IMG/VR virus record: IMGVR_UViG_3300021086_000003 | Span: 29,398-93,397 of that record | Length of the DNA: 64,000 nt | DNA from: a virus | Reading direction: 5' to 3' (one strand) | Shown: piece by piece, positions 12,493-58,225 of the stretch | Numbering within the stretch: the first letter of the stretch is position 1 | Layout of the letters: every line of letters starts with the position of its first letter | Made by a program: the position numbers and the translations under genes | Notes under the pieces: generated by a model | Told to the model about the DNA's origin: nothing | Databases searched by the model: none | The model's input: only the letters and a program-made list of their open reading frames with translations

Positions 12493-12825
12493 TCACTCGC
12501 CGCGCTGCTCCAGCAACTCATTCAGGAGACCAGCGACAGTCCCCAGGGCGGCCACGGCCTGCCGAATCCGCCGCGCGTGACGCCGACTCAGTTCGATGGA
12601 CGCAGTGATGCCGAGAAGCCAATGCACATCGGTGTCCAGCACTGCGGCCAGCCGCACGAGAGTCTCCGTGCTGACCGCGTTCTGGCCGGTCTCCCACTTG
12701 CACACCGCTGCCTGACTGCACCCGAGTGCAGCCCCAACCGCACCCTGACTCAACCCGGTCGCGAGACGTGCTTCGGCGAGACGAGCACCTATCGCCACGT
12801 CCCATGCCCGTACCGGATCAGGCAT
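12493..12825 (-). CDS. XRE-family HTH regulator
   Basis: ARLATGLSQGAVGAALGCSQAAVCKWETG. Confidence 0.85.
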   Translation of the reverse strand: MPDPVRAWDVAIGARLAEARLATGLSQGAVGAALGCSQAAVCKWETGQNAVSTETLVRLAAVLDTDVHWLLGITASIELSRRHARRIRQAVAALGTVAGLLNELLEQRGE

Positions 12826-12846
12826 GGGCGCCGGTCAATGCATCGG

Positions 12847-13155
12847 TCATCGCAAGTCCTCCAGCACGTCATCCCAATGGGCCGGCGTCCACAACCGCCC
12901 GTGTTCGCCGAGTGCGGCCAGCCACGCCAACTGGTCAGCCGTAGCCGTGCCCCTCGCTGACTTCAACTCGACCAGCAGTACCCGGCTGCGGCGGCTGAGG
13001 ATCAAGTCCGGTAGGCCGTGATCGCCGTCGTACGGCACCGTCCAGCCATGGGCTGTACGAGCGGGGCGAATGTGGACCCAGCGCCATCCACGGAGCGTGG
13101 CGTAGTCGGTGACGCGCTTTTGAAAGTCCGCTTCGGACATGAGCAGGCCGGTCAT
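12847..13155 (-). CDS. VRR-NUC nuclease / resolvase
   Basis: SEADFQ..V, GLPDLIL, VELKS...TADQ..W. Confidence 0.85.
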   Translation of the reverse strand: MTGLLMSEADFQKRVTDYATLRGWRWVHIRPARTAHGWTVPYDGDHGLPDLILSRRSRVLLVELKSARGTATADQLAWLAALGEHGRLWTPAHWDDVLEDLR

Positions 13156-13524: not shown

Positions 13525-15132
13525 ATGACCAGCCATGACGACACCTCGCCGCGATCCGCTGGGCTGACTGCTGACCTGGTGGTCGAAGGGTTCGCCGGGC
13601 CGGGCGGCTGGAGTGAGGGCCTACGCCTCGCGGGCTACGAAGGCGTGGCCGTGGGCCTGGAACACGACATGGCCGCGTGCCGCACCGCTGTCGCCGCTGG
13701 CCACGCCCGGATCTGCGCCGACGTGGCCACCTACCCCACCGCGCCGTTCGAGGGCCGGGTGGACGGCCTGATCCAGTCGCCGCCGTGCCAGGGCTGGTCA
13801 AACGCCGGGGATCGGAAAGGAGAACTGGACCGGGCCGCCGTACATGCCCGGCTGGTGGCGTTCGCGCAGGGTCGTGAACCAGCCATGGTGCAGTGGCATG
13901 ACGAACGCTCACCGCTGGCCGCCGAACCGATGCGGTGGGCCTACGCGCTGCGTCCCCGCTGGATCGCCTTGGAGCAGGTTCCCCCAGTGCTGCCACTGTG
14001 GGAGCACATGGCGGTTCTGCTGCGCGGCATGGGCTACCGGGTGTGGACCGGGATCTTGTCCGCAGAGGAATATGGAGTGCCCCAAACGCGCAAACGCGCG
14101 ATTCTCGTGGCCCGCCGAGACGGGTTGCCGGTGGGGCCGCCGACGCCGACGCATCAGTCGTACCGCTCGGGCGTTGCCTACGAAACCGAGGCGTCCCTGT
14201 TCGGCGACCCACTACCTCGCCCGGTGTCGATGGCGGACGCGCTGGGGTGGGGCCTGCCGGATCAGCCCAGTTCTGTGGTGATGACGGCACGCGGTCGCCA
14301 GGCCGGCCCGGAGGACGCGTTGCGGGGTTCGTCGTGGCGGCACGCCTGGTTCCAGCGGCAGATTGCGGACGGCAACTGGGTGATGCGGTCGAGCTACGGC
14401 ACCAGTGGCGACCCGTCCGACCGGGGCGAGCGGGACTCCGCCGAACCGGCACCGACCGCCACCGGGAAGATCAACCGGAACAAGTTGGTGCTGCGCGGTA
14501 GCCAGGCTGTAGGTGGTGACCCGGACCAGCGGAGCGAACGTACCGAGGACGAGCCAGCTCAGACGGTGATGTCCACCGTGAACCGCAGTATGTGGACGAT
14601 CGAGTCCGCGTCACGCAGGAAGGTCAACGACCGCACCCATCCCCGTAGTGCCGACGACCCAGCGATGACTGTGGCGTTCGGGCACTCGGACATGCAGTGG
14701 GTGATGCGCAACGGCAACCAAGCCAATGCCTGCGCCCGCGCCCGCGCCCTGGACGAGCCTGCCGGCACCCTGTTCTTCGGTCAACGCACCAACGCGGTGG
14801 ACTGGGTCGTGTGTCCTGGCAACAACTCGCGCGTCGCCAAGGACAAGGTGCTGCCGTATCACCGGGATGTCGCAGCACCGTCAACAGGGCTGACCTCGAA
14901 CGTGGGCAGTTGGCGCGTGCACGGCCCGGCAGGTGACGAGTGCGGGGACGCTCGTACCGGTGAGCAGTCGGTGCGGGTCACGGTCCAGGAGGCTGGCGTG
15001 TTGCAGTCGTTCCGCGCTGACTACCCGTGGACGGGCACCAAGTCTCAGCAGTACCGATGCGTCGGGGACGCCGTGCCGCCATTGCTGGCCGCGGCGATCC
15101 TGCGCCCGCTGATCGCGCGGGGTGACTTGTGA
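13525..15132 (+). CDS. DNA (cytosine-5) methyltransferase with five tandem variable-region repeats
   Basis: FAGPGG (I), SPPCQ (IV), EQV (VI), QTRKR (VIII), VGDAVPP (X). Confidence 0.92.
   Translation: MTSHDDTSPRSAGLTADLVVEGFAGPGGWSEGLRLAGYEGVAVGLEHDMAACRTAVAAGHARICADVATYPTAPFEGRVDGLIQSPPCQGWSNAGDRKGELDRAAVHARLVAFAQGREPAMVQWHDERSPLAAEPMRWAYALRPRWIALEQVPPVLPLWEHMAVLLRGMGYRVWTGILSAEEYGVPQTRKRAILVARRDGLPVGPPTPTHQSYRSGVAYETEASLFGDPLPRPVSMADALGWGLPDQPSSVVMTARGRQAGPEDALRGSSWRHAWFQRQIADGNWVMRSSYGTSGDPSDRGERDSAEPAPTATGKINRNKLVLRGSQAVGGDPDQRSERTEDEPAQTVMSTVNRSMWTIESASRRKVNDRTHPRSADDPAMTVAFGHSDMQWVMRNGNQANACARARALDEPAGTLFFGQRTNAVDWVVCPGNNSRVAKDKVLPYHRDVAAPSTGLTSNVGSWRVHGPAGDECGDARTGEQSVRVTVQEAGVLQSFRADYPWTGTKSQQYRCVGDAVPPLLAAAILRPLIARGDL
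14377..14910 (+). repeat. Five 35-36 aa protein repeats inside the C5-MTase
   Basis: Units begin W/L-V-x-R and carry R-x3-(E/D)PA-x-T; lengths 36+36+35+35+36 aa. Confidence 0.75.
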
Positions 15133-31476: not shown

Positions 31477-31809
31477 ATGACCGCAACGTGGCCCCGGGAG
31501 GGCCGGTGTGGAGCGTGTGGCCGGCCAGCGCGCGGGTTCCCGTCCGGACGGTGGGAGCACCTCGGGCGGCCGTGCCGGGCCCGGTACACCACGATGTGGA
31601 CGGTGGACTCTGTCTCGATCGCGCGGGCGTGCCGGTTCGTGCTGGCGGGGGAGCAGCTGCCGGTCGAGCCGGATCGGCCGCACTGGCACGCCATCCGCCA
31701 TGACGAGCGGGGCGTTCCGACGGCGTTGGGGTGGTGCCAGGAGGACCACATGCCGTCGGTGCGGGAGTGGCTGGCCGCCGAAGCCGATCGCGATATCCAA
31801 CTCCCGTAG
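31477..31809 (+). CDS. Hypothetical protein
   Basis: 110 aa; CGAC. Confidence 0.65.
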   Translation: MTATWPREGRCGACGRPARGFPSGRWEHLGRPCRARYTTMWTVDSVSIARACRFVLAGEQLPVEPDRPHWHAIRHDERGVPTALGWCQEDHMPSVREWLAAEADRDIQLP

Positions 31810-31842
31810 ACGGTTGCTTTACGGGAGTTGGGCGGGTAGTCT
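31798..31842 (+). promoter_or_regulatory. Palindromic promoter copy 1
   Basis: CAACTCCCGTAGA-CGGTTGC-TTTACGGGAGTTG; TTGCTT-N17-TAGTCT. Confidence 0.75.
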
Positions 31843-33696: not shown

Positions 33697-33797
33697 GGGT
33701 CGTAGCGTAGATGATCGGGTCAGGCCGCCATGCTCGCAACGGGACCGGGCACCGGGTGAGTATCAGGTGCCGCTGCCACCTGATACTCACGCCACCC

Positions 33798-33842
33798 TAA
33801 CTCCCGTAGGCGTTGCTTTTACGGGAGTTGAGGCGGTAGACT
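33798..33842 (+). promoter_or_regulatory. Palindromic promoter copy 2
   Basis: TAACTCCCGTAGG-CGTTGCT-TTTACGGGAGTTG; TTGCTT-N18-TAGACT. Confidence 0.75.
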
Positions 33843-33848
33843 ACCGGC

Positions 33849-34025
33849 ATGACCACCACCACGATCGCCTACACCCGCCGGACCGAGTCGGGCGAGACCG
33901 AGCAGGGCGTTGCCCAGGTCCAGCACGATGCCGGCCGGTCCCAGCCGTCCTGGGCGGACTGCCGCCGCGCCATTCCTGGCTTTATCACCGGCCGCCGCCT
34001 GGAGAACCACCAGGCTGGTGCGTGA
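33849..34025 (+). CDS. Small leaderless protein (not in ORF track)
   Basis: MTTTTIAYTRRTESG..., 58 aa; TGATG-coupled to next gene. Confidence 0.65.
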   Translation: MTTTTIAYTRRTESGETEQGVAQVQHDAGRSQPSWADCRRAIPGFITGRRLENHQAGA

Positions 34026-34387: not shown

Positions 34388-34627
34388 GTGGCCAGCACCA
34401 TGGCGACTGAAGACTTGGGCGCCCCAGAGGTAGTCGTCTGGGAGATCACCTCGGCCGGCGAGTTCGGCGGCCACGAATTTGAGTATGAGCAGGTTTCTGA
34501 CCTGTTCAAGTGCACGCGTCCCGGTTGTGGCCAGTACGAGATCATCGCTCGGCAGAAGGCCAAAAAGCAGGGTATCGGCGAGATCACGCGATGCCAGGGA
34601 ACCTCACCAGAGGAGGCTGGCCAGTGA
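34388..34627 (+). CDS. Small Zn-ribbon-like protein
   Basis: FKCTRPGC; start may be ATG 34400. Confidence 0.6.
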   Translation: MASTMATEDLGAPEVVVWEITSAGEFGGHEFEYEQVSDLFKCTRPGCGQYEIIARQKAKKQGIGEITRCQGTSPEEAGQ

Positions 34628-34791
34628 AGTTCGTGGTACTGCGATTCGAGAACGACGCCGACGCGGACCTCCTCGTCGAAGACATGACCGAATGGCCCAA
34701 CGACGACATCCTGACCCCCTGCCAGGAGAACTTCGTGCACGCCACTCTCGTCGGCGTCTACTCCGAACTACCGGGCGGGGTGCCGCAGTGA
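34624..34791 (+). CDS. Small acidic protein
   Basis: 55 aa, GTGA chain. Confidence 0.6.
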   Translation: MKFVVLRFENDADADLLVEDMTEWPNDDILTPCQENFVHATLVGVYSELPGGVPQ

Positions 34792-35219
34792 AGACCGTGC
34801 CGGCACCGCTCAGCCGGGCCAACCTGCGGCGGCTCATTAACGCGTGCGACACGGAAACCCTGGCCGGGACGCGAGACCGGTACATCCTCGCGTTGGGGTG
34901 GGCGCTGGCAGTTCCCCGGTCGTGGCTGGCTGTCGTACAGATCGAGGATGCCCACGACGGCTGGTTCAAGGGCTATGCCGGCGGTTTGGGGGAGTGGCAC
35001 CGGGACTGGCTCACTGCCCTCGCGTTGGCTGCCGGCAAGCCGGTGCTGTCTGGCCCACTGTTGTGGTCGATCACCCGTTACGACCAGTTGAGCCACCCTG
35101 GTATGTCCGGCGATGCGATCAACGATGTGGTGCAGCGAGCGGTGCACCGGGCCAAGCTGGGGGAGCCGTGGCGGTACTCGGCGCATTCACTGCGCCTCGG
35201 CGGGAGGGCTGGGGTATGA
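34788..35219 (+). CDS. Truncated tyrosine-recombinase catalytic-domain protein without catalytic Tyr
   Basis: Aligns by eye to 40010-41059 (LAG.RDR..L..GWALA, DA.ND.VQR, SAHSLR) and stops 7 aa after HSLR. Confidence 0.8.
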   Translation: MKTVPAPLSRANLRRLINACDTETLAGTRDRYILALGWALAVPRSWLAVVQIEDAHDGWFKGYAGGLGEWHRDWLTALALAAGKPVLSGPLLWSITRYDQLSHPGMSGDAINDVVQRAVHRAKLGEPWRYSAHSLRLGGRAGV

Positions 35220-35461
35220 GCAACAGCAGGGGTGACTGCCCGGACACCTACGACGGCACGGGCTACGAACGAGCTGACGTCGAGGAATCGCGCCAGTGGG
35301 AACTGGAAAACAACGCGACCGAATACTGTCCGGAACATCCGGACGTGCCGGACAGGGAGTGCGAGATCTGCAACTGCCGGAACTGTGGCGACCCGATCGA
35401 CCCGGCTGCCTGCGCGTTGGGCAGCAACGTGTGCTCAAGCTGTAGGAGGGCGGGGGTGTGA
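35216..35461 (+). CDS. Cys-rich small protein
   Basis: CEIC, CRNC, CSSC. Confidence 0.65.
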   Translation: MSNSRGDCPDTYDGTGYERADVEESRQWELENNATEYCPEHPDVPDRECEICNCRNCGDPIDPAACALGSNVCSSCRRAGV

Positions 35462-35817
35462 TTGCCGACCTCGCGACGGAACTAGCCGCCGTACGCGCCA
35501 TGCTGGAAGACCACGAACGACGCCTCTACCCCATCGCAGCCAGCGAACTCCCCCCGCCGTCCCGCAGGGTCACCGACACCGGGTCACGCGGCATGGATGG
35601 CCCCCGATGGGCAGTCGGCAAGGACTGGGAAGTGGTGGCGCTGGACGACACCGAATTCCAGGACTGCGTGTACCTCAGTCGGGATGTGCCACTGGCGAGG
35701 GACATCGAATCGCTTACATTGGAGGACGCGCGCCGGATGGCCGCTGCGTTGTTGGCCGCGATCAGCTACTGCACCGACGACCTCGCACAACGACGCAACG
35801 GGAAGGCGCGGGTATGA
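35458..35817 (+). CDS. Hypothetical protein
   Basis: 119 aa. Confidence 0.7.
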   Translation: MIADLATELAAVRAMLEDHERRLYPIAASELPPPSRRVTDTGSRGMDGPRWAVGKDWEVVALDDTEFQDCVYLSRDVPLARDIESLTLEDARRMAAALLAAISYCTDDLAQRRNGKARV

Positions 35818-36617
35818 ACTGGATGCTCCCCGTCAGCCGACCCGATAGGTGGCTCCCAGCCAACACCGCAACCATGCAGTACCCGCCGGAACCGGGTCGG
35901 CTGATTGCCTACGACCACGCCGTGTGGCGTGTGATCGAGGTCAACCCGGTACCCGCAGACCTGTGGACCGAACGCGACCACCAAGCGGTACGCGCCCTGA
36001 AACCGGCCTACCGGAACGTGGCGGAACCCGCCGTTGTCGTCATCCGCCCAATCTGGATCACCAGAGACGACATCAAGGCACGTAACCACGACAAGCACCT
36101 GCGGCACTACTGCTACAAGACCTGGCATGTGTACCAGGATGAGCACTACCAGGTGTGCGCCGTGTGCGGGGAGCCGCCACCGTGCCGTGAGCGGATGGGG
36201 CAGCGCATCGCCACTCGCGAACTGGATCGGATGACCCGGTTCGAAACCCCCGGCGTGTGCCCGGCCTGCGAGGAACCCGTCACCGCCCGGCAGAAGTCGT
36301 TGACGTTCGCTGACAACATGGAAATCCCCGCTGGCCCGCCGGTGACGTTCCACCTCCGCGGCAAGTGCTGGACAGCGGCGGCACAGTACGAACAGCAGTG
36401 GATCCAGGCCGACCCTACCCAGCGCCGCGCCACCCTGTCCTGCGCTGGTCACATCACGAACCACAACGACGGCACCTACGAGTGCACCGAACTCGCGAAC
36501 TGTGCAGGTCCGGCAGCGATCCATCCGTCATACGCCAGTTGTGACTGTTCGAGCTGCAACACCCAGGGCCGGTTTAACTGCAAGCCGAGTCCGACCGCGC
36601 GCCGGGCAGGTGGATGA
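35814..36617 (+). CDS. Cys/His-rich hypothetical protein
   Basis: 267 aa; CAVCGE..PC, CPAC, CAGH. Confidence 0.75.
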   Translation: MNWMLPVSRPDRWLPANTATMQYPPEPGRLIAYDHAVWRVIEVNPVPADLWTERDHQAVRALKPAYRNVAEPAVVVIRPIWITRDDIKARNHDKHLRHYCYKTWHVYQDEHYQVCAVCGEPPPCRERMGQRIATRELDRMTRFETPGVCPACEEPVTARQKSLTFADNMEIPAGPPVTFHLRGKCWTAAAQYEQQWIQADPTQRRATLSCAGHITNHNDGTYECTELANCAGPAAIHPSYASCDCSSCNTQGRFNCKPSPTARRAGG

Positions 36618-38724: not shown

Positions 38725-38750
38725 GCACGCAGTGTAGAAGGAGGCGCGTG

Positions 38751-38969
38751 GTGACCGACTACCGAATGATGGATGCCATGGAGGCAGCCAGGACCCCCGA
38801 CGTCGACGCGACCGCGAACCTGGCAGCCAGCATCATCGCGGGCATTGACTGGTTCATCGTTGACCAGTTGACCAACGACGACCGAGATGCAGCGCTGGCC
38901 GAACTTCGTCATGCAGGGTTGGCCCGAACGGCGGAGTTCTTCGCCGGGGTGCGCGAATCGGACACGTAA
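38751..38969 (+). CDS. Hypothetical protein
   Basis: RBS AAGGAGG; 72 aa. Confidence 0.65.
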   Translation: MTDYRMMDAMEAARTPDVDATANLAASIIAGIDWFIVDQLTNDDRDAALAELRHAGLARTAEFFAGVRESDT

Positions 38970-39098
38970 GACTACCGGGCCATCGAACTCGTCGGGCGCA
39001 GACACCCGTTTGCCTGCCACACAATTAAGATTATGTGGCGTATGCCTGGTTCGGCCGTGAGTCAGCCGAGCCGTCCGTGGTGTCCGACTCCCGTTGAG

Positions 39099-39142
39099 GA
39101 ACTCCCGATAACCTTGCTTATCGGGAGTTGTTAGGGTAGGGT
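39099..39142 (+). promoter_or_regulatory. Palindromic promoter copy 3
   Basis: GAACTCCCGATAA-CCTTGC-TTATCGGGAGTTG; TTGCTT-N17-TAGGGT. Confidence 0.75.
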
Positions 39143-39149
39143 CAGGGAC

Positions 39150-39317
39150 ATGACGAAGCCACTGGAGCAGGACACCAACCGGATGATGGACATGCCCAAA
39201 TGGGAACTGGTCCGGTTCGCCCAGAACGTGCAAGCCGCACTTCCTGGCAAGGGCGTCATCACGTCCGGCCGCAAAGCGGACATCGCCTTCAGCATCTTCG
39301 CCGCCACCCAGAACTGA
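39150..39317 (+). CDS. Small leaderless protein resembling the Rho N-terminal domain (not in ORF track)
   Basis: MPKWELVRFAQNV...SGRKADIAFSIF, 55 aa. Confidence 0.6.
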   Translation: MTKPLEQDTNRMMDMPKWELVRFAQNVQAALPGKGVITSGRKADIAFSIFAATQN

Positions 39318-39396
39318 ACCAGGCGCAGTTCTGCGCGACGTCGTTGATGTGGTGACCCCCCCTTCTCGTTTCACTTGACCAAGGAAGGAGATCTAC

Positions 39397-39621
39397 ATGT
39401 TCGAGACGCTTCCGACCATCACCGCCTCTGAGGCAACGCCCGGTACCGAAGTGTTGATCGAGTCCGGGATCACCACCGATTTTGGCGCGTTGCCCACCTT
39501 CGAATGGGTGACCGTGGCGCAGTGGGTGGCCTGTGGTGACGGTCTTGCTGGCCTGGTCGGTTCGCGTGGCCAGTGGTGCGGCCAGTTCTCCCCCGACGAC
39601 CGCCTCAAGGTGCGCGCGTGA
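39397..39621 (+). CDS. Hypothetical protein
   Basis: RBS AAGGAG; 74 aa. Confidence 0.7.
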   Translation: MFETLPTITASEATPGTEVLIESGITTDFGALPTFEWVTVAQWVACGDGLAGLVGSRGQWCGQFSPDDRLKVRA

Positions 39622-40010
39622 TGTGCTCTCACAGCCCGGAACATGAGACCGACGGCTGGGGTGCGTGCCTCACGGATGGCTGCGAGTGGGGCCACGAAGA
39701 CGCCTACTGGAACAAGGTAGACGCCGGACTGCTTGACGCAGCGAGCGACGCAGCCGCGTACCACCTGATCGATCGGCGACCAGGAAGGACTTACGTCACC
39801 GTGACCGAATACGCCAGCACCGAATCCTCCACCAGCGAACCTGGCTGGGTTACACACTTGATCCATGTCAACGGCAACGCCATCAAGTTCGAGCGGAACG
39901 TCAACTCGGGCGAGACCCACATGCCGGGGGTGGTGCCGTTCGAGACCTACTCGCTGGGTGATGCCCAAGACATCGCGCGAGCCCTGTACGACAAGCGGGC
40001 AACGGTCTGA
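39618..40010 (+). CDS. Hypothetical protein
   Basis: 130 aa in overlap chain. Confidence 0.7.
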   Translation: MMCSHSPEHETDGWGACLTDGCEWGHEDAYWNKVDAGLLDAASDAAAYHLIDRRPGRTYVTVTEYASTESSTSEPGWVTHLIHVNGNAIKFERNVNSGETHMPGVVPFETYSLGDAQDIARALYDKRATV

Positions 40011-41059
40011 TGACCGACCTCGTCCCCATCCCGCCGGACGTGCCAGTTCACCGCGATGACACAGTGTTGCCCGGCACAGCGGAACGCATCGCCAAAGGCG
40101 TGAAGGTCAACACCCGCCGGTCGTACTCCCGAGTCTTGCGACAGTTTGCCGCATGGTGCAACAGCCAGGGCCGCGAATCCATGCCCGCCTCCCCCGCCAC
40201 GTTCGCTGACTATGTCGCGCACCTGTGCGACGAAGGCAAAGCCCCGTCCACCATCAAGCACGACATGGGTGCCATCAGCAAGCAACACCAACTGGCTGGC
40301 TACCCAAAAGGCACACCGGCCGCGACGGCCGCGAACCTGGTGCTCAACGGCTACCGGGAGGAACGGGCTGATGCCGGCTTCCGGGTCACCGAGGCCCCTC
40401 CGATCACCCGTGCTCGGCTACGACAAATGTCGGCGGCCTGCGATGCGTCAACACTCGCAGGGAAACGGGACAGGCTGCTCCTGGTGATCGGTTGGGCGCT
40501 CGCGGGCCGACGGTCCGAACTCGCCGCGCTCCGCATCGAGGACGTCACCATCGAGGATGATGACTTGATGATTCACATTCGCAAGTCGAAAACCGACAAG
40601 GAATCGGTAGGCGAGACAGTGGTTGTGCCCGCTGGCGAGCATGTGGACACTGACCCAATCGGGCTGTTCAACGACTGGATCGGTGCACTGGCCGAGCGGG
40701 GCGAGAGCACGCACACCGGCCCCCTCTTCCGGGCCATCACCGCCAGGGACAAGCTTCAGCGGGAACACGTCGTGATACGGGCCAGTGACGGCGCCGTGCT
40801 CCAGTTCGGCCGGCTCAGTGCTGACGCCGTGAATGACCTCGTCCAACGTGCTGCCCAACGGGCGTGCCTGCCGAACGCGCACCTGTTCTCGGCGCATTCA
40901 CTCCGCGCGGGGTTCGCGACGCAGGCAGCGAACGACGGTATCCCGCAGTCGATCTGGGCTGAGCACGGCCGATGGGAGAAGACATCCCCCGTACCGGCGA
41001 AGTATGTGCGTCGCGCCGACAAGAAGCGGGACAATCCACTCAGGAAGATGGGGCTGTGA
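40010..41059 (+). CDS. Tyrosine recombinase (Xer/Cre-like), intact
   Basis: SAM-like N-domain; RRSE, KSKTD, HSLR, HGRW, KYVR. Confidence 0.93.
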   Translation: MTDLVPIPPDVPVHRDDTVLPGTAERIAKGVKVNTRRSYSRVLRQFAAWCNSQGRESMPASPATFADYVAHLCDEGKAPSTIKHDMGAISKQHQLAGYPKGTPAATAANLVLNGYREERADAGFRVTEAPPITRARLRQMSAACDASTLAGKRDRLLLVIGWALAGRRSELAALRIEDVTIEDDDLMIHIRKSKTDKESVGETVVVPAGEHVDTDPIGLFNDWIGALAERGESTHTGPLFRAITARDKLQREHVVIRASDGAVLQFGRLSADAVNDLVQRAAQRACLPNAHLFSAHSLRAGFATQAANDGIPQSIWAEHGRWEKTSPVPAKYVRRADKKRDNPLRKMGL

Positions 41060-41146
41060 CCCGGTCCCCCGTCCGCAAGGTGTCCCGAGCGTTGCTGGGG
41101 CCACCAACCAACCCGTAACCCCTCCACCACGAAAGGACAAGCAAAC

Positions 41147-41641
41147 GTGTTCAGGAGCAGAAGTAGAAGGTGGCAACTCGAAATCGATCGCCGGGCCGTG
41201 CCATTGACACCGCAGGAGGTCGAGGTGTTAGTGACTGGCTTTGCCGAGAAGGACCGCCTGACTCAACGGCATCGGCCCGACATCTGCGGGGGCAGTGGGT
41301 ACAGCCGGGGTCAGGCAGTGGAGGTGATGCGGGCCGCCGCGTTGGCGGCCTCCCTAGGTCACGACTCGGTGCCGTACATGGTGACCAGTCTGCACATGTT
41401 GGAGTACGTCACGGGCGACTTGAGGAGGTGGGCCCCGCAGGCTCGACACACGGAGTCGTTCGCGCTGTTGGAGTTGAAACTCCATGCGCTGAGTGCGGTC
41501 GCAGCCCGCAACAACTGGCGCTACGAAAGTGACGATGAGGCCCGCGCCATCCGCTGGGTCACCCCCCCAGCGGCAGCAATGGCGAAGGCGATCGAATTCG
41601 GTGGGCGTTGCTCTGTGACCACCACCGACCCGAACCGCTAA
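41147..41641 (+). CDS. Hypothetical protein
   Basis: RBS AAAGGA; 164 aa; TTA codon at 41228. Confidence 0.65.
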   Translation: MFRSRSRRWQLEIDRRAVPLTPQEVEVLVTGFAEKDRLTQRHRPDICGGSGYSRGQAVEVMRAAALAASLGHDSVPYMVTSLHMLEYVTGDLRRWAPQARHTESFALLELKLHALSAVAARNNWRYESDDEARAIRWVTPPAAAMAKAIEFGGRCSVTTTDPNR

Positions 41642-41670
41642 CCCTCCACCACGAGAAAGGAAACACGAGA

Positions 41671-41889
41671 ATGCGACGGATCAACAGGATGGCACGCGAG
41701 GCCGTCGAGCGGCATCCGGAGCCAGGTAAGGACCCCATCGAACGGCTTCAGCACGCAGTGGCCATGTTCGAGAACGAGCCCGACAATGACTGGGCGATCG
41801 TGGCCACCAGCAACATCTATGGGCAAGGTGTTCGAACCGGGCTCACTTGGGGCGACCTGCGGTTGCTGCTGGTGTTGGTGCGGCCGTGA
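41671..41889 (+). CDS. Hypothetical protein
   Basis: RBS AAAGGA; 72 aa. Confidence 0.65.
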   Translation: MRRINRMAREAVERHPEPGKDPIERLQHAVAMFENEPDNDWAIVATSNIYGQGVRTGLTWGDLRLLLVLVRP

Positions 41890-42635
41890 CCGACACTCAG
41901 CCGGCGACTGACGCAACAGCCAAACTGGCCGCCGACGTGGTTCTGCTGGCCAACCACGACAACGCCCTATGGGTGCTACTCATCGAACGCGGCTGGCCGC
42001 CGTTCGAGGGCAAGTGGGCACTTCCCGGCGGGCACGTTGACGAGGGCGAGGATGCCCAGGTGGCGGCCCGCCGTGAACTGGCCGAAGAGGCAGGGCTGGA
42101 CGCAGTTCGACTGCATTTGGTCGGCGTCTATGGCGCACCCGGCCGCGACCCGCGCGGCCGGTACGTCTCGTGGGCGTACGTGGCCGTGCTGGACCAGATG
42201 CCTGACCCGGTGGCCGGTGATGACGCCCGCGACGCGCGGTGGTTCCGGGTTGCCGAAGTGATGGCGGACCCGGACCGGCTGGCGTTCGACCACCACCAGA
42301 TCATCACCGATGCCGTAGCGCTCGTCGGCTATCCCTTCCCGCCGATGGAGGCGCGACCTACCCGGATGCGCCCGCCGTTCGAGGCGCCCGGCTACGCACC
42401 TCACATCGAGCAGGGTTTCGGCGAGACCAACGACCAGTGGAAAGCCCGCTACCACGCGGACTTCGTGGCCGCCCTCACCGAAGCCCTGGCGGGTGTCGAG
42501 CTGGGCGCCTACGACGGGACCATCGTGGACTGGCTGGCTGGCTGGGGAGTTGAGACGGTAGGCGTGTTGGCGTCCCTGTTCTACCGGTGCCGGCAGGCCG
42601 GACGGCTCGGCACTGACCAGGACCGGGAGGTGTGA
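41886..42635 (+). CDS. Nudix hydrolase (ADP-ribose pyrophosphatase/NrtR-type) with C-terminal extension
   Basis: WALPGG.V..GE....AA.REL.EE.G, RDPRG, LAFDH. Confidence 0.88.
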   Translation: MTDTQPATDATAKLAADVVLLANHDNALWVLLIERGWPPFEGKWALPGGHVDEGEDAQVAARRELAEEAGLDAVRLHLVGVYGAPGRDPRGRYVSWAYVAVLDQMPDPVAGDDARDARWFRVAEVMADPDRLAFDHHQIITDAVALVGYPFPPMEARPTRMRPPFEAPGYAPHIEQGFGETNDQWKARYHADFVAALTEALAGVELGAYDGTIVDWLAGWGVETVGVLASLFYRCRQAGRLGTDQDREV

Positions 42636-56620: not shown

Positions 56621-58225
56621 GTGGGCGCCTTCACCAACTGGCTGTTCGCCCGACCCACAGCGCCCATCTGGGAGACCGCGTCCGCGATCCCGAAAACCCC
56701 GGAACGCGCCGGGTTCGAATACGGCATCCCGCGCGAGGGCCTCAACGAATACAACACGGGTGTCGGGGCGTCCACCCAGACCGACCGGCGCAGCGCCATG
56801 CAGGAGTTGTACGAAAGCTATCTGAGTTGCCCGTGGGCATGGGCGTGCGTCAATGCGATCGCCCGCACCGTCACCGCCGGCGGTTTGGTCACGGACTGGG
56901 ACAGCGACGACGGCGAAGGCGACCAGGCCCAGCCGGACAAGCCGCCCGAGGTGTTGGCGCTGGAACGGCTGCTGACGTACATCAACCCCCGCGAGGACAT
57001 CCGGCAGTTGCTGCGCTCCACCATCAGTGACCTGCTCGTGTTCGGTGACGCGTTCATCGAAGTGGTGTGGGTCGGCTCTGTGCCGGTAGCGCTGTACACC
57101 CTGGACTGCCCGTCCACCACGCCGATCGCGGACGAGCACGGCACCGTCACCGGATATGTGCAGGTCACGGACTATGGACAGCGCGCCACGTTCGAGCCCC
57201 GCGAAGTGATCCACCTATCACTGGACGCGCCCCGCTCCGGGGTGCTGGGGGTGTCGCCGACCCAGGCAGCCCTGTTGCCGATCACGACGTGGCTGTTTTG
57301 CGAAGCCACGGTGAAAGAGACATTCCGGAAGGGGAATCCGCCGAACCTGTGGGCGGACATGCCGGCCGGGATGTCAGTGGGCGAGCAGAACCGGTGGCTG
57401 GCACAGCACGCCGCGAAGAACCTTGGGCCCCGCAACATCGGCGTGCCGGTGGTCACCAAGGGTGGCGCGAAGGTCACCGAGTTGCAGCAGGGCAAGATCC
57501 AGGAGTACCTGGCGACCCTGGACCAGTCCCGGGACATGATCCTGGCCGCCTATGGTGTGCCGCCGGCTGAGGCCACGGTGATCGAGGCCGGCAACCTGGG
57601 TGGGGGTACGGGTGAATCCCAAAGGAAAACCTTTTTAATTAATACGTGCCAGCCAATCGCCGAATTGGTGCTGGAGAAACTCAATTTTCACATCGTCAAA
57701 ATAGGGTTCGGCATCGGCGGGTGGCGTCTCAAATTCGGTGAAGTTGACATGCGGGACAGCAAAGTCATTGAGGACATCCGCGACAGCAGGTTGCGCAACG
57801 GATCCTGGACGCTGAACCGGTACCGCACCGAAATCGGCGAACCGCCCACCGAGGGTGGAGACGCCGCCGTCTTGGTCGACAGGCAGAACCTGGTGCTGTG
57901 GCGCGATATGGAGGCGTTCTCCACCGCCGGCGTGGCCTTCAAGTTGAAGGGCACCGCATTGGAGCCTGGCGAACCGGCCGCCGGAGCACCCGTCACGCTG
58001 GAGAAGCCCGAACCGGCTCCTGTACCGACTGCCCTGGCGCCGTTCGCCGGTACACCGCCACCCGAGCCGGGGCGCGAGCCGCAGGGCGGGGAACAGCCCG
58101 CCGGCAAGGAGTCCTGGCCAGAGGTGCCAGGCAGTCTCACCGAGACGTGGCAGCGCGCCTACCGGGCCCGACTGGCAGAGGCGCTCCGGGAGTTGCCGCA
58201 TGTCGGAACCGACACCGCCGCCTGA
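56621..58225 (+). CDS. Portal protein
   Basis: ACV.AIA..., L..FG.AF, V.G.SP, ILAAYGVPP, T.N..R...GEPP. Confidence 0.92.
   Translation: MGAFTNWLFARPTAPIWETASAIPKTPERAGFEYGIPREGLNEYNTGVGASTQTDRRSAMQELYESYLSCPWAWACVNAIARTVTAGGLVTDWDSDDGEGDQAQPDKPPEVLALERLLTYINPREDIRQLLRSTISDLLVFGDAFIEVVWVGSVPVALYTLDCPSTTPIADEHGTVTGYVQVTDYGQRATFEPREVIHLSLDAPRSGVLGVSPTQAALLPITTWLFCEATVKETFRKGNPPNLWADMPAGMSVGEQNRWLAQHAAKNLGPRNIGVPVVTKGGAKVTELQQGKIQEYLATLDQSRDMILAAYGVPPAEATVIEAGNLGGGTGESQRKTFLINTCQPIAELVLEKLNFHIVKIGFGIGGWRLKFGEVDMRDSKVIEDIRDSRLRNGSWTLNRYRTEIGEPPTEGGDAAVLVDRQNLVLWRDMEAFSTAGVAFKLKGTALEPGEPAAGAPVTLEKPEPAPVPTALAPFAGTPPPEPGREPQGGEQPAGKESWPEVPGSLTETWQRAYRARLAEALRELPHVGTDTAA

Follow-up and report, generated by a model that had tools for sequence, protein, structure and literature searches.

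A half-size relative of Cre-type recombinases, very probably catalytically dead, is kept in large uncultured actinophages

The 143-aa mini-recombinase described here is very probably a real gene under purifying selection, whose product folds as a compact Cre-type catalytic core, is unable to perform recombination chemistry and is one of at least 16 half-size proteins in a family adjoining the Cre-like group. Judged by the residues that it has kept and lost, it is a tyrosine-recombinase descendant that falls short of the enzyme family in every functional respect. An earlier note on this DNA had proposed three roles for it (inhibitor, directionality factor or repurposed DNA-binding regulator), and we infer that the last of these is the most plausible.

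The window, that is, the whole stretch of 64,000 nucleotides that was analysed, corresponds to bases 29398-93397 of a 102.9-kb IMG/VR virus record (G000), 67% G+C. Its other genes include two DnaB-like helicases, a DNA methyltransferase, an IbrA-like PAPS-reductase protein, the large terminase and the portal. The source is a soil-type actinophage, and the mini family is kept in large uncultured actinophages. The best match of the portal (56621-58225) among 50,697 sequenced phages is a virus of Methanobacteriales with only 24% identity, and therefore the lineage is very poorly sampled and has no cultured relatives. The two helicase genes are adjacent ORFs (167-1483 and 1365-2843) that overlap as listed and match a DnaB-like replicative helicase (phrog_19, E 1.5e-76 and 3.1e-111, respectively).

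Architecture of the gene and its product

The genes relevant to this work are the following, all in window coordinates:

34624-34791, plus strand: 55-aa gene whose stop overlaps the mini start; no family match
34788-35219, plus strand: mini-recombinase gene, 143 aa, Cre-type catalytic-domain core
35216-35817, plus strand: two small genes (81 aa, Cys-rich; 119 aa), the first starting in the mini stop
35814-36617, plus strand: gene of a 267-aa Cys-rich protein, phrog_26381
40010-41059, plus strand: Cre-like tyrosine recombinase, 349 aa, with a SAM-like N-terminal domain and the complete R-E-K-H-R-W-Y set

The mini ORF runs without internal stops from a GTG start at 34788 to a TGA at 35217-35219. 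Its start lies inside the stop of the 55-aa gene (GTGA) and its own stop shares bases with the ATG of the next gene (ATGA), and overlaps at both ends are also present in L004, the corresponding locus of a related phage (G001), where the 55-aa gene is kept together with its overlap. The 81-aa and 119-aa genes are absent from L004, and there the mini gene joins the next gene directly. Both phages share the order 55-aa gene, mini, 267-aa gene and the overlaps between stops and starts, the 267-aa proteins being 89% identical. When viral contigs were scanned with this 267-aa neighbour, G001 was the sole match. The genes neighbouring the mini have no informative family matches; the 81-aa protein is zinc-finger-like and the 119-aa protein shows weak PHROG matches.

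The full-length recombinase at 40010-41059 matches PF00589 and SAM-like N-terminal domains, and its best solved relatives are Cre chains (E 1e-18), with the R, E, K, H, R, W and Y residues in register. Residues 7-138 of the mini align by BLASTP with residues 131-301 of this protein (37% identity, E 1e-25). At the nucleotide level, positions 35177-35191 are identical to 40888-40902, an exact run of 15 nt whose length was reached in one of 500 codon shuffles. The Trp and Tyr of the full-length recombinase were assigned through a HMMER alignment to Cre, and the Cre assignments were then carried over to the mini.

A comparison with Cre of phage P1 reveals how much of the enzyme has been lost. The core-binding (N-terminal SAM-like) domain is absent, the alignment beginning at full-length residue 131, and the position of the start codon is kept in the orthologues. 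The β2-3 hairpin carrying the catalytic Lys (RKSKTD in the paralogue, K201 in Cre) is deleted. At the other end the protein stops seven residues past the box II Arg136, without helices L-N and hence without the Trp (W315), the Tyr (Y324) and the C-terminal docking helix (helix N). Within the remaining core, the Arg I position (R173) is occupied by Pro43, with a conserved Arg44 one position on, and the Glu position (E176) by Trp46. Only two of the seven active-site residues are kept, His133 and Arg136, the equivalents of H289 and R292. A protein of this composition would not cleave DNA and would have no C-terminal helix to donate. The anatomy given in the earlier note, namely a coupled 143-aa ORF free of internal stops, aligned to the catalytic domain of the paralogue with a 15-nt identity and missing the N-domain, the KSKTD Lys hairpin, the Trp and the Tyr, was confirmed in every part by the coordinates, the overlaps and the Cre-anchored alignment, to which the losses of Arg I and Glu are now added.

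The mini lies outside the reach of the common profiles. No Pfam model matched it at E<=1, the MrpR_C_cat model included, and no PHROGs match was obtained; PF00589 finds one gene each in G000 and G001, neither of them the mini. No sequence match to the family profile was found in the PDB. The AlphaFold2 model built from a 132-sequence alignment (pLDDT 95.1, pTM 0.90) is that of a compact Cre-type catalytic core, which has counterparts of helices F, G, H, I, J and K of Cre and whose best Foldseek matches are Cre chains (query TM-score 0.70-0.76). With an alignment of five sequences the same procedure gave a pLDDT of 45.

The half-size family and the selection acting on it

A word-indexed search retrieved four relatives sharing the architecture of the mini, one of 143 aa (88% identity) and three of 170-172 aa (57-58%), all with the tail ..HSLRLGGRxxV; one of the four is placed in the syntenic 104-kb viral contig G001, at L004. 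No change is seen in the box II His, the box II Arg or the helix J block (GDAIND.VQRA) anywhere in this 57-88%-identity group. A profile search for the family through 1.84 billion cluster representatives found 16 short proteins of 143-226 aa, all ending 5-30 residues after box II, with LGGR-type tails in 12 and ARRKV tails in the other four. The same stop position is held in relatives down to ~30% identity. The distant members replace HSLR with LSLR, YSLT, HSLV, DSLR, TSLY or DSLY, the pattern that would be expected from selection relaxed on catalysis and not on the fold; the positions conserved across the whole family mark the fold core only. One metagenomic member, P0017 (226 aa), carries a 77-residue N-terminal extension before the truncated catalytic core.

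A maximum-likelihood tree built on the shared region places all 16 minis together on the same side of one branch, supported at 98/87 and recovered in 98% of bootstrap trees. The full-length proteins adjoining this branch are P0002, P0010, P0032 and P0023, and the small full-length group that contains the 40010-41059 recombinase is the nearest to the family. The mini form is absent from 50,697 sequenced phages and 72,556 PLSDB plasmids, in which only full-length recombinases were found. Scans of viral contigs with P0008, P0009 and P0030 gave no match, and neither did scans of metagenome contigs and genome contigs with the family alignment. Several clusters of short 'Tyr recombinase domain' proteins are listed in the ESM Atlas; as they come without alignments, they were given no weight here.

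The strength of selection was estimated from one sequence pair, the mini and its L004 orthologue, which gave a dN of 0.23, a dS of 0.79 and a dN/dS of 0.30 (bootstrap 95% CI 0.18-0.47). This ratio is within the range of five neighbouring genes compared between the same two phages (0.22-0.39). The mini diverges faster than its neighbours (69% versus 79-89% identity; dS 0.79 versus 0.24-0.63), and the two orthologues differ in length solely by an in-frame indel of 27 codons, located where the hairpin was lost. The view of the earlier note that this is not simple decay is borne out, because the truncation is shared by orthologues and distant relatives, the dN/dS is 0.30, the indels are in frame and the predicted fold is confident; maintenance of the mini by selection is well supported by these sequence comparisons. 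The search for homologues with the same truncation that the note had called for returned both orthologues and distant relatives, and full-length homologues beside a single copy in neutral decay is not the situation found.

Promoter palindromes and the exchanged integration module

Three promoters of the window overlap lox-like palindromes of the AACTCCCG family:

31797-31831, plus strand: palindromic promoter 1, 12-bp arms and 7-bp spacer; kept in L004 (7126-7153)
33799-33829, plus strand: palindromic promoter 2, AACTCCCGTA..TACGGGAGTT, with TTGCTT in the spacer and TAGACT downstream
39099-39130, plus strand: palindromic promoter 3, perfect 12-bp arms and 6-bp spacer CCTTGC; in the window's phage only

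Members of the family, 30-31 bp in total, are interpretable as a pair of inverted 12-bp arms flanking an asymmetric 6-7-bp spacer that holds the -35 box. Arms of 12 bp with a 6-7-bp spacer are the layout of a tyrosine-recombinase core site, and also suit many repressor operators. Among the phages checked the palindromes were found in these two only; G000 has three copies and G001 two, of which one precedes the mini operon in either phage. A match resembling them in L005 was discarded as a coincidence inside coding sequence.

Palindromic promoter 2 is followed by an ATG at 33849, the head of a tightly packed same-strand gene series that includes the mini, which agrees with the earlier placement of the gene in the unit of this promoter, at 33799-33829. 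The copy upstream of the mini operon in L004 (9372-9399) is partly eroded, in its right arm. Directly upstream of promoter 2 lies a perfect 12-bp inverted repeat (33756-33790, GTGAGTATCAGG..CCTGATACTCAC, 11-nt loop) that may be a terminator or hairpin closing the preceding unit. Palindromic promoter 3 heads the unit with the full-length recombinase.

This last unit belongs to a module that has been swapped between the two otherwise syntenic phages (window 38726-42627 versus L004:12489-15864). In the window it comprises palindromic promoter 3, a trio of small genes, the Cre-like recombinase, a further two genes and a Nudix gene; in L004 its place is taken by a small minus-strand HTH gene (12677-12922) and a XerC-like integrase of 373 aa (13968-15089). 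The 104-kb G001 record contains no Cre-like recombinase, its only PF00589 protein being this unrelated XerC-like integrase (E 1.5e-18), and the mini persists in it despite the exchange. The only stretch conserved in these ~3.5 kb is an island of ~60 nt (46 identical; window 41063-41119, L004:15034-15090), which in the window lies 4 nt past the stop of the Cre-like gene and in L004 codes for the C-terminal ~17 residues of the XerC-like integrase. Possibly it is an attachment site or marks the junction of the module exchange; as a test of the former, a 20-mer from the island was searched in 185,579 species genomes and had no match.

The exchange bears directly on two of the roles proposed in the earlier note. 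That the mini is dedicated to the intact paralogue as its directionality factor or inhibitor is unlikely, because it survives the swap of the integrase module in G001, where it is accompanied by an unrelated integrase with an HTH gene nearby, and this part of the proposal is weakened. Most recombination directionality factors (RDFs) are small proteins of the winged-helix or HTH type, with genes next to that of their integrase. The mini resembles them and the excisionases in being a small phage protein that could modulate site-specific recombination, but differs in its recombinase fold, in its distance of 4-5 kb from the integrase and in its retention when the integrase module was swapped. It is not an RDF in fold or inheritance.

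Possible roles of the mini-recombinase

The reading that we tentatively prefer, by analogy with a known phage repressor, is that of a non-cleaving DNA-binding regulator or site occluder. The precedent is MrpR (YopR), the master repressor of the Bacillus prophage SPbeta, a protein of tyrosine-recombinase fold, deprived of catalytic residues and inactive in recombination, which acts by binding a repeated element in promoters (PMC10516654; PDB 8A0A). Like the mini, it is a phage protein in which a recombinase fold has outlived some of its catalytic residues; unlike the mini, it is full length (320 aa, core-binding and catalytic domains) and keeps the Tyr and the Lys. Since the mini is a single domain and has no MrpR_C_cat match, it is not a member of the MrpR family.

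In this scenario the mini would be made from an early or middle operon driven by palindromic promoter 2 and would bind recombinase-type inverted repeats, above all the AACTCCCG palindromes that overlap promoters in both phages. Binding at the promoter of its own operon would result in autoregulation, which follows from the overlap of that promoter with a candidate target. Palindromic promoter 1 is, speculatively, a further candidate binding site. Several observations point in this direction. The close family shows no variation in the two phosphate-binding residues of box II, His and Arg, or in the helix J block, the palindromes occur in both mini-carrying phages, and the mini persists in G001 in the absence of a Cre-like partner. 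Moreover, the isolated catalytic domain of Cre binds a loxP half-site, its cavity taking up helix N of the neighbouring subunit (bioRxiv 10.1101/2020.05.24.113654).

A laboratory construct described in the same work, CreCat deltaC (residues 127-330), is like the mini an isolated catalytic domain without helix N (bioRxiv 10.1101/2020.05.24.113654). It differs from the mini in being man-made and in keeping helices L and M and the whole active site, whereas the mini is natural and more deeply truncated. We know of no natural counterpart of this construct.

Other observations weigh against a DNA-binding regulator. Two elements to which tyrosine recombinases owe much of their hold on DNA, the core-binding domain and the Lys hairpin, have been lost, and the net charge varies across the family from -6 to +9; neither charge nor pI separated the DNA-binding from the protein-binding hypotheses. 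The His and the Arg II are lost in distant members, and conservation in the family as a whole is confined to the fold core. The link with the palindromes comes from two close phages with dozens of other genes in common, and the protein that binds the palindromes could be the product of any of these. In addition, neither Pfam, with its MrpR_C_cat model, nor PHROGs relates the mini to a known family.

Rather unlikely, though the main rival of this reading, is the possibility that the mini captures the C-terminal helix of a recombinase, whether the phage's own, the host's or that of a rival element, and blocks or tunes the assembly of the cyclic tetramer as a natural dominant-negative subunit. 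In Cre, the cavity that receives helix N of the neighbour is built by helices F, G and H, the β2-3 loop and helices I, K and L (bioRxiv 10.1101/2020.05.24.113654). Five of these seven elements (F, G, H, I and K) are kept by the mini, which has no helix N to donate; the nearest full-length relatives have a strongly conserved C-terminal tail, DNP[LM]R.[MI]G[LF], and the mini and a Cre-like recombinase co-occur in the window. However, two walls of the cavity, the β2-3 loop and helix L, are missing, the G001 mini is under purifying selection in a 104-kb record devoid of a Cre-like recombinase, and helix capture would leave the conservation of the box II His and Arg unexplained. Somewhat more doubtful is the particular version in which the mini would accept a docking helix without being able to pass one on, and would so poison or time the assembly of recombination tetramers of the phage or of its rivals within one host, plasmid-prophages and integrating elements.

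An adaptor unrelated to recombination, binding protein partners together with the 55-aa and 267-aa phrog_26381 neighbours or acting against a host factor, is likewise improbable. The conservation of the three-gene order with its overlapping codons between G000 and G001 would fit such a role, as would a family-wide conservation limited to the fold core and a net charge that is not conserved. Against it, the neighbour families have no known function, two extra genes part the mini from the 267-aa gene in the window, and the genomic context comes from two genomes only, both of closely related phages.

Least tenable of all, with very little to recommend it beyond a short ORF devoid of Pfam or PHROGs matches that evolves faster than its neighbours, is a recent duplicate in neutral decay or a piece of a split or frameshifted recombinase with its Tyr segment elsewhere: the dN/dS, the stop position held to ~30% identity and the grouping of the truncated forms on one side of a single branch contradict decay; a split or frameshifted enzyme is excluded because tblastn with the full-length protein as query, run over all 102.9 kb of the record, found no segment matching residues 305-349 outside the recombinase gene; the downstream ORFs are unrelated; and an origin as an assembly fragment is ruled out by reading of the DNA in the cases of the window and L004.

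Full-length relatives of tyrosine recombinases without catalytic activity, such as MrpR, were already known, but a conserved family reduced to the core and derived from Cre-like enzymes is apparently new, since literature searches returned dead proteins of full length and nothing resembling this family. Genes of this type are missed by annotation pipelines, as they have no Pfam or PHROG match, or are mislabelled 'integrase'. Cre-type enzymes are widely used tools, and if the mini captures recombinase tails, it would offer a natural template for protein inhibitors of these enzymes. If the mini binds DNA, half a recombinase would be enough for the role of a regulator.
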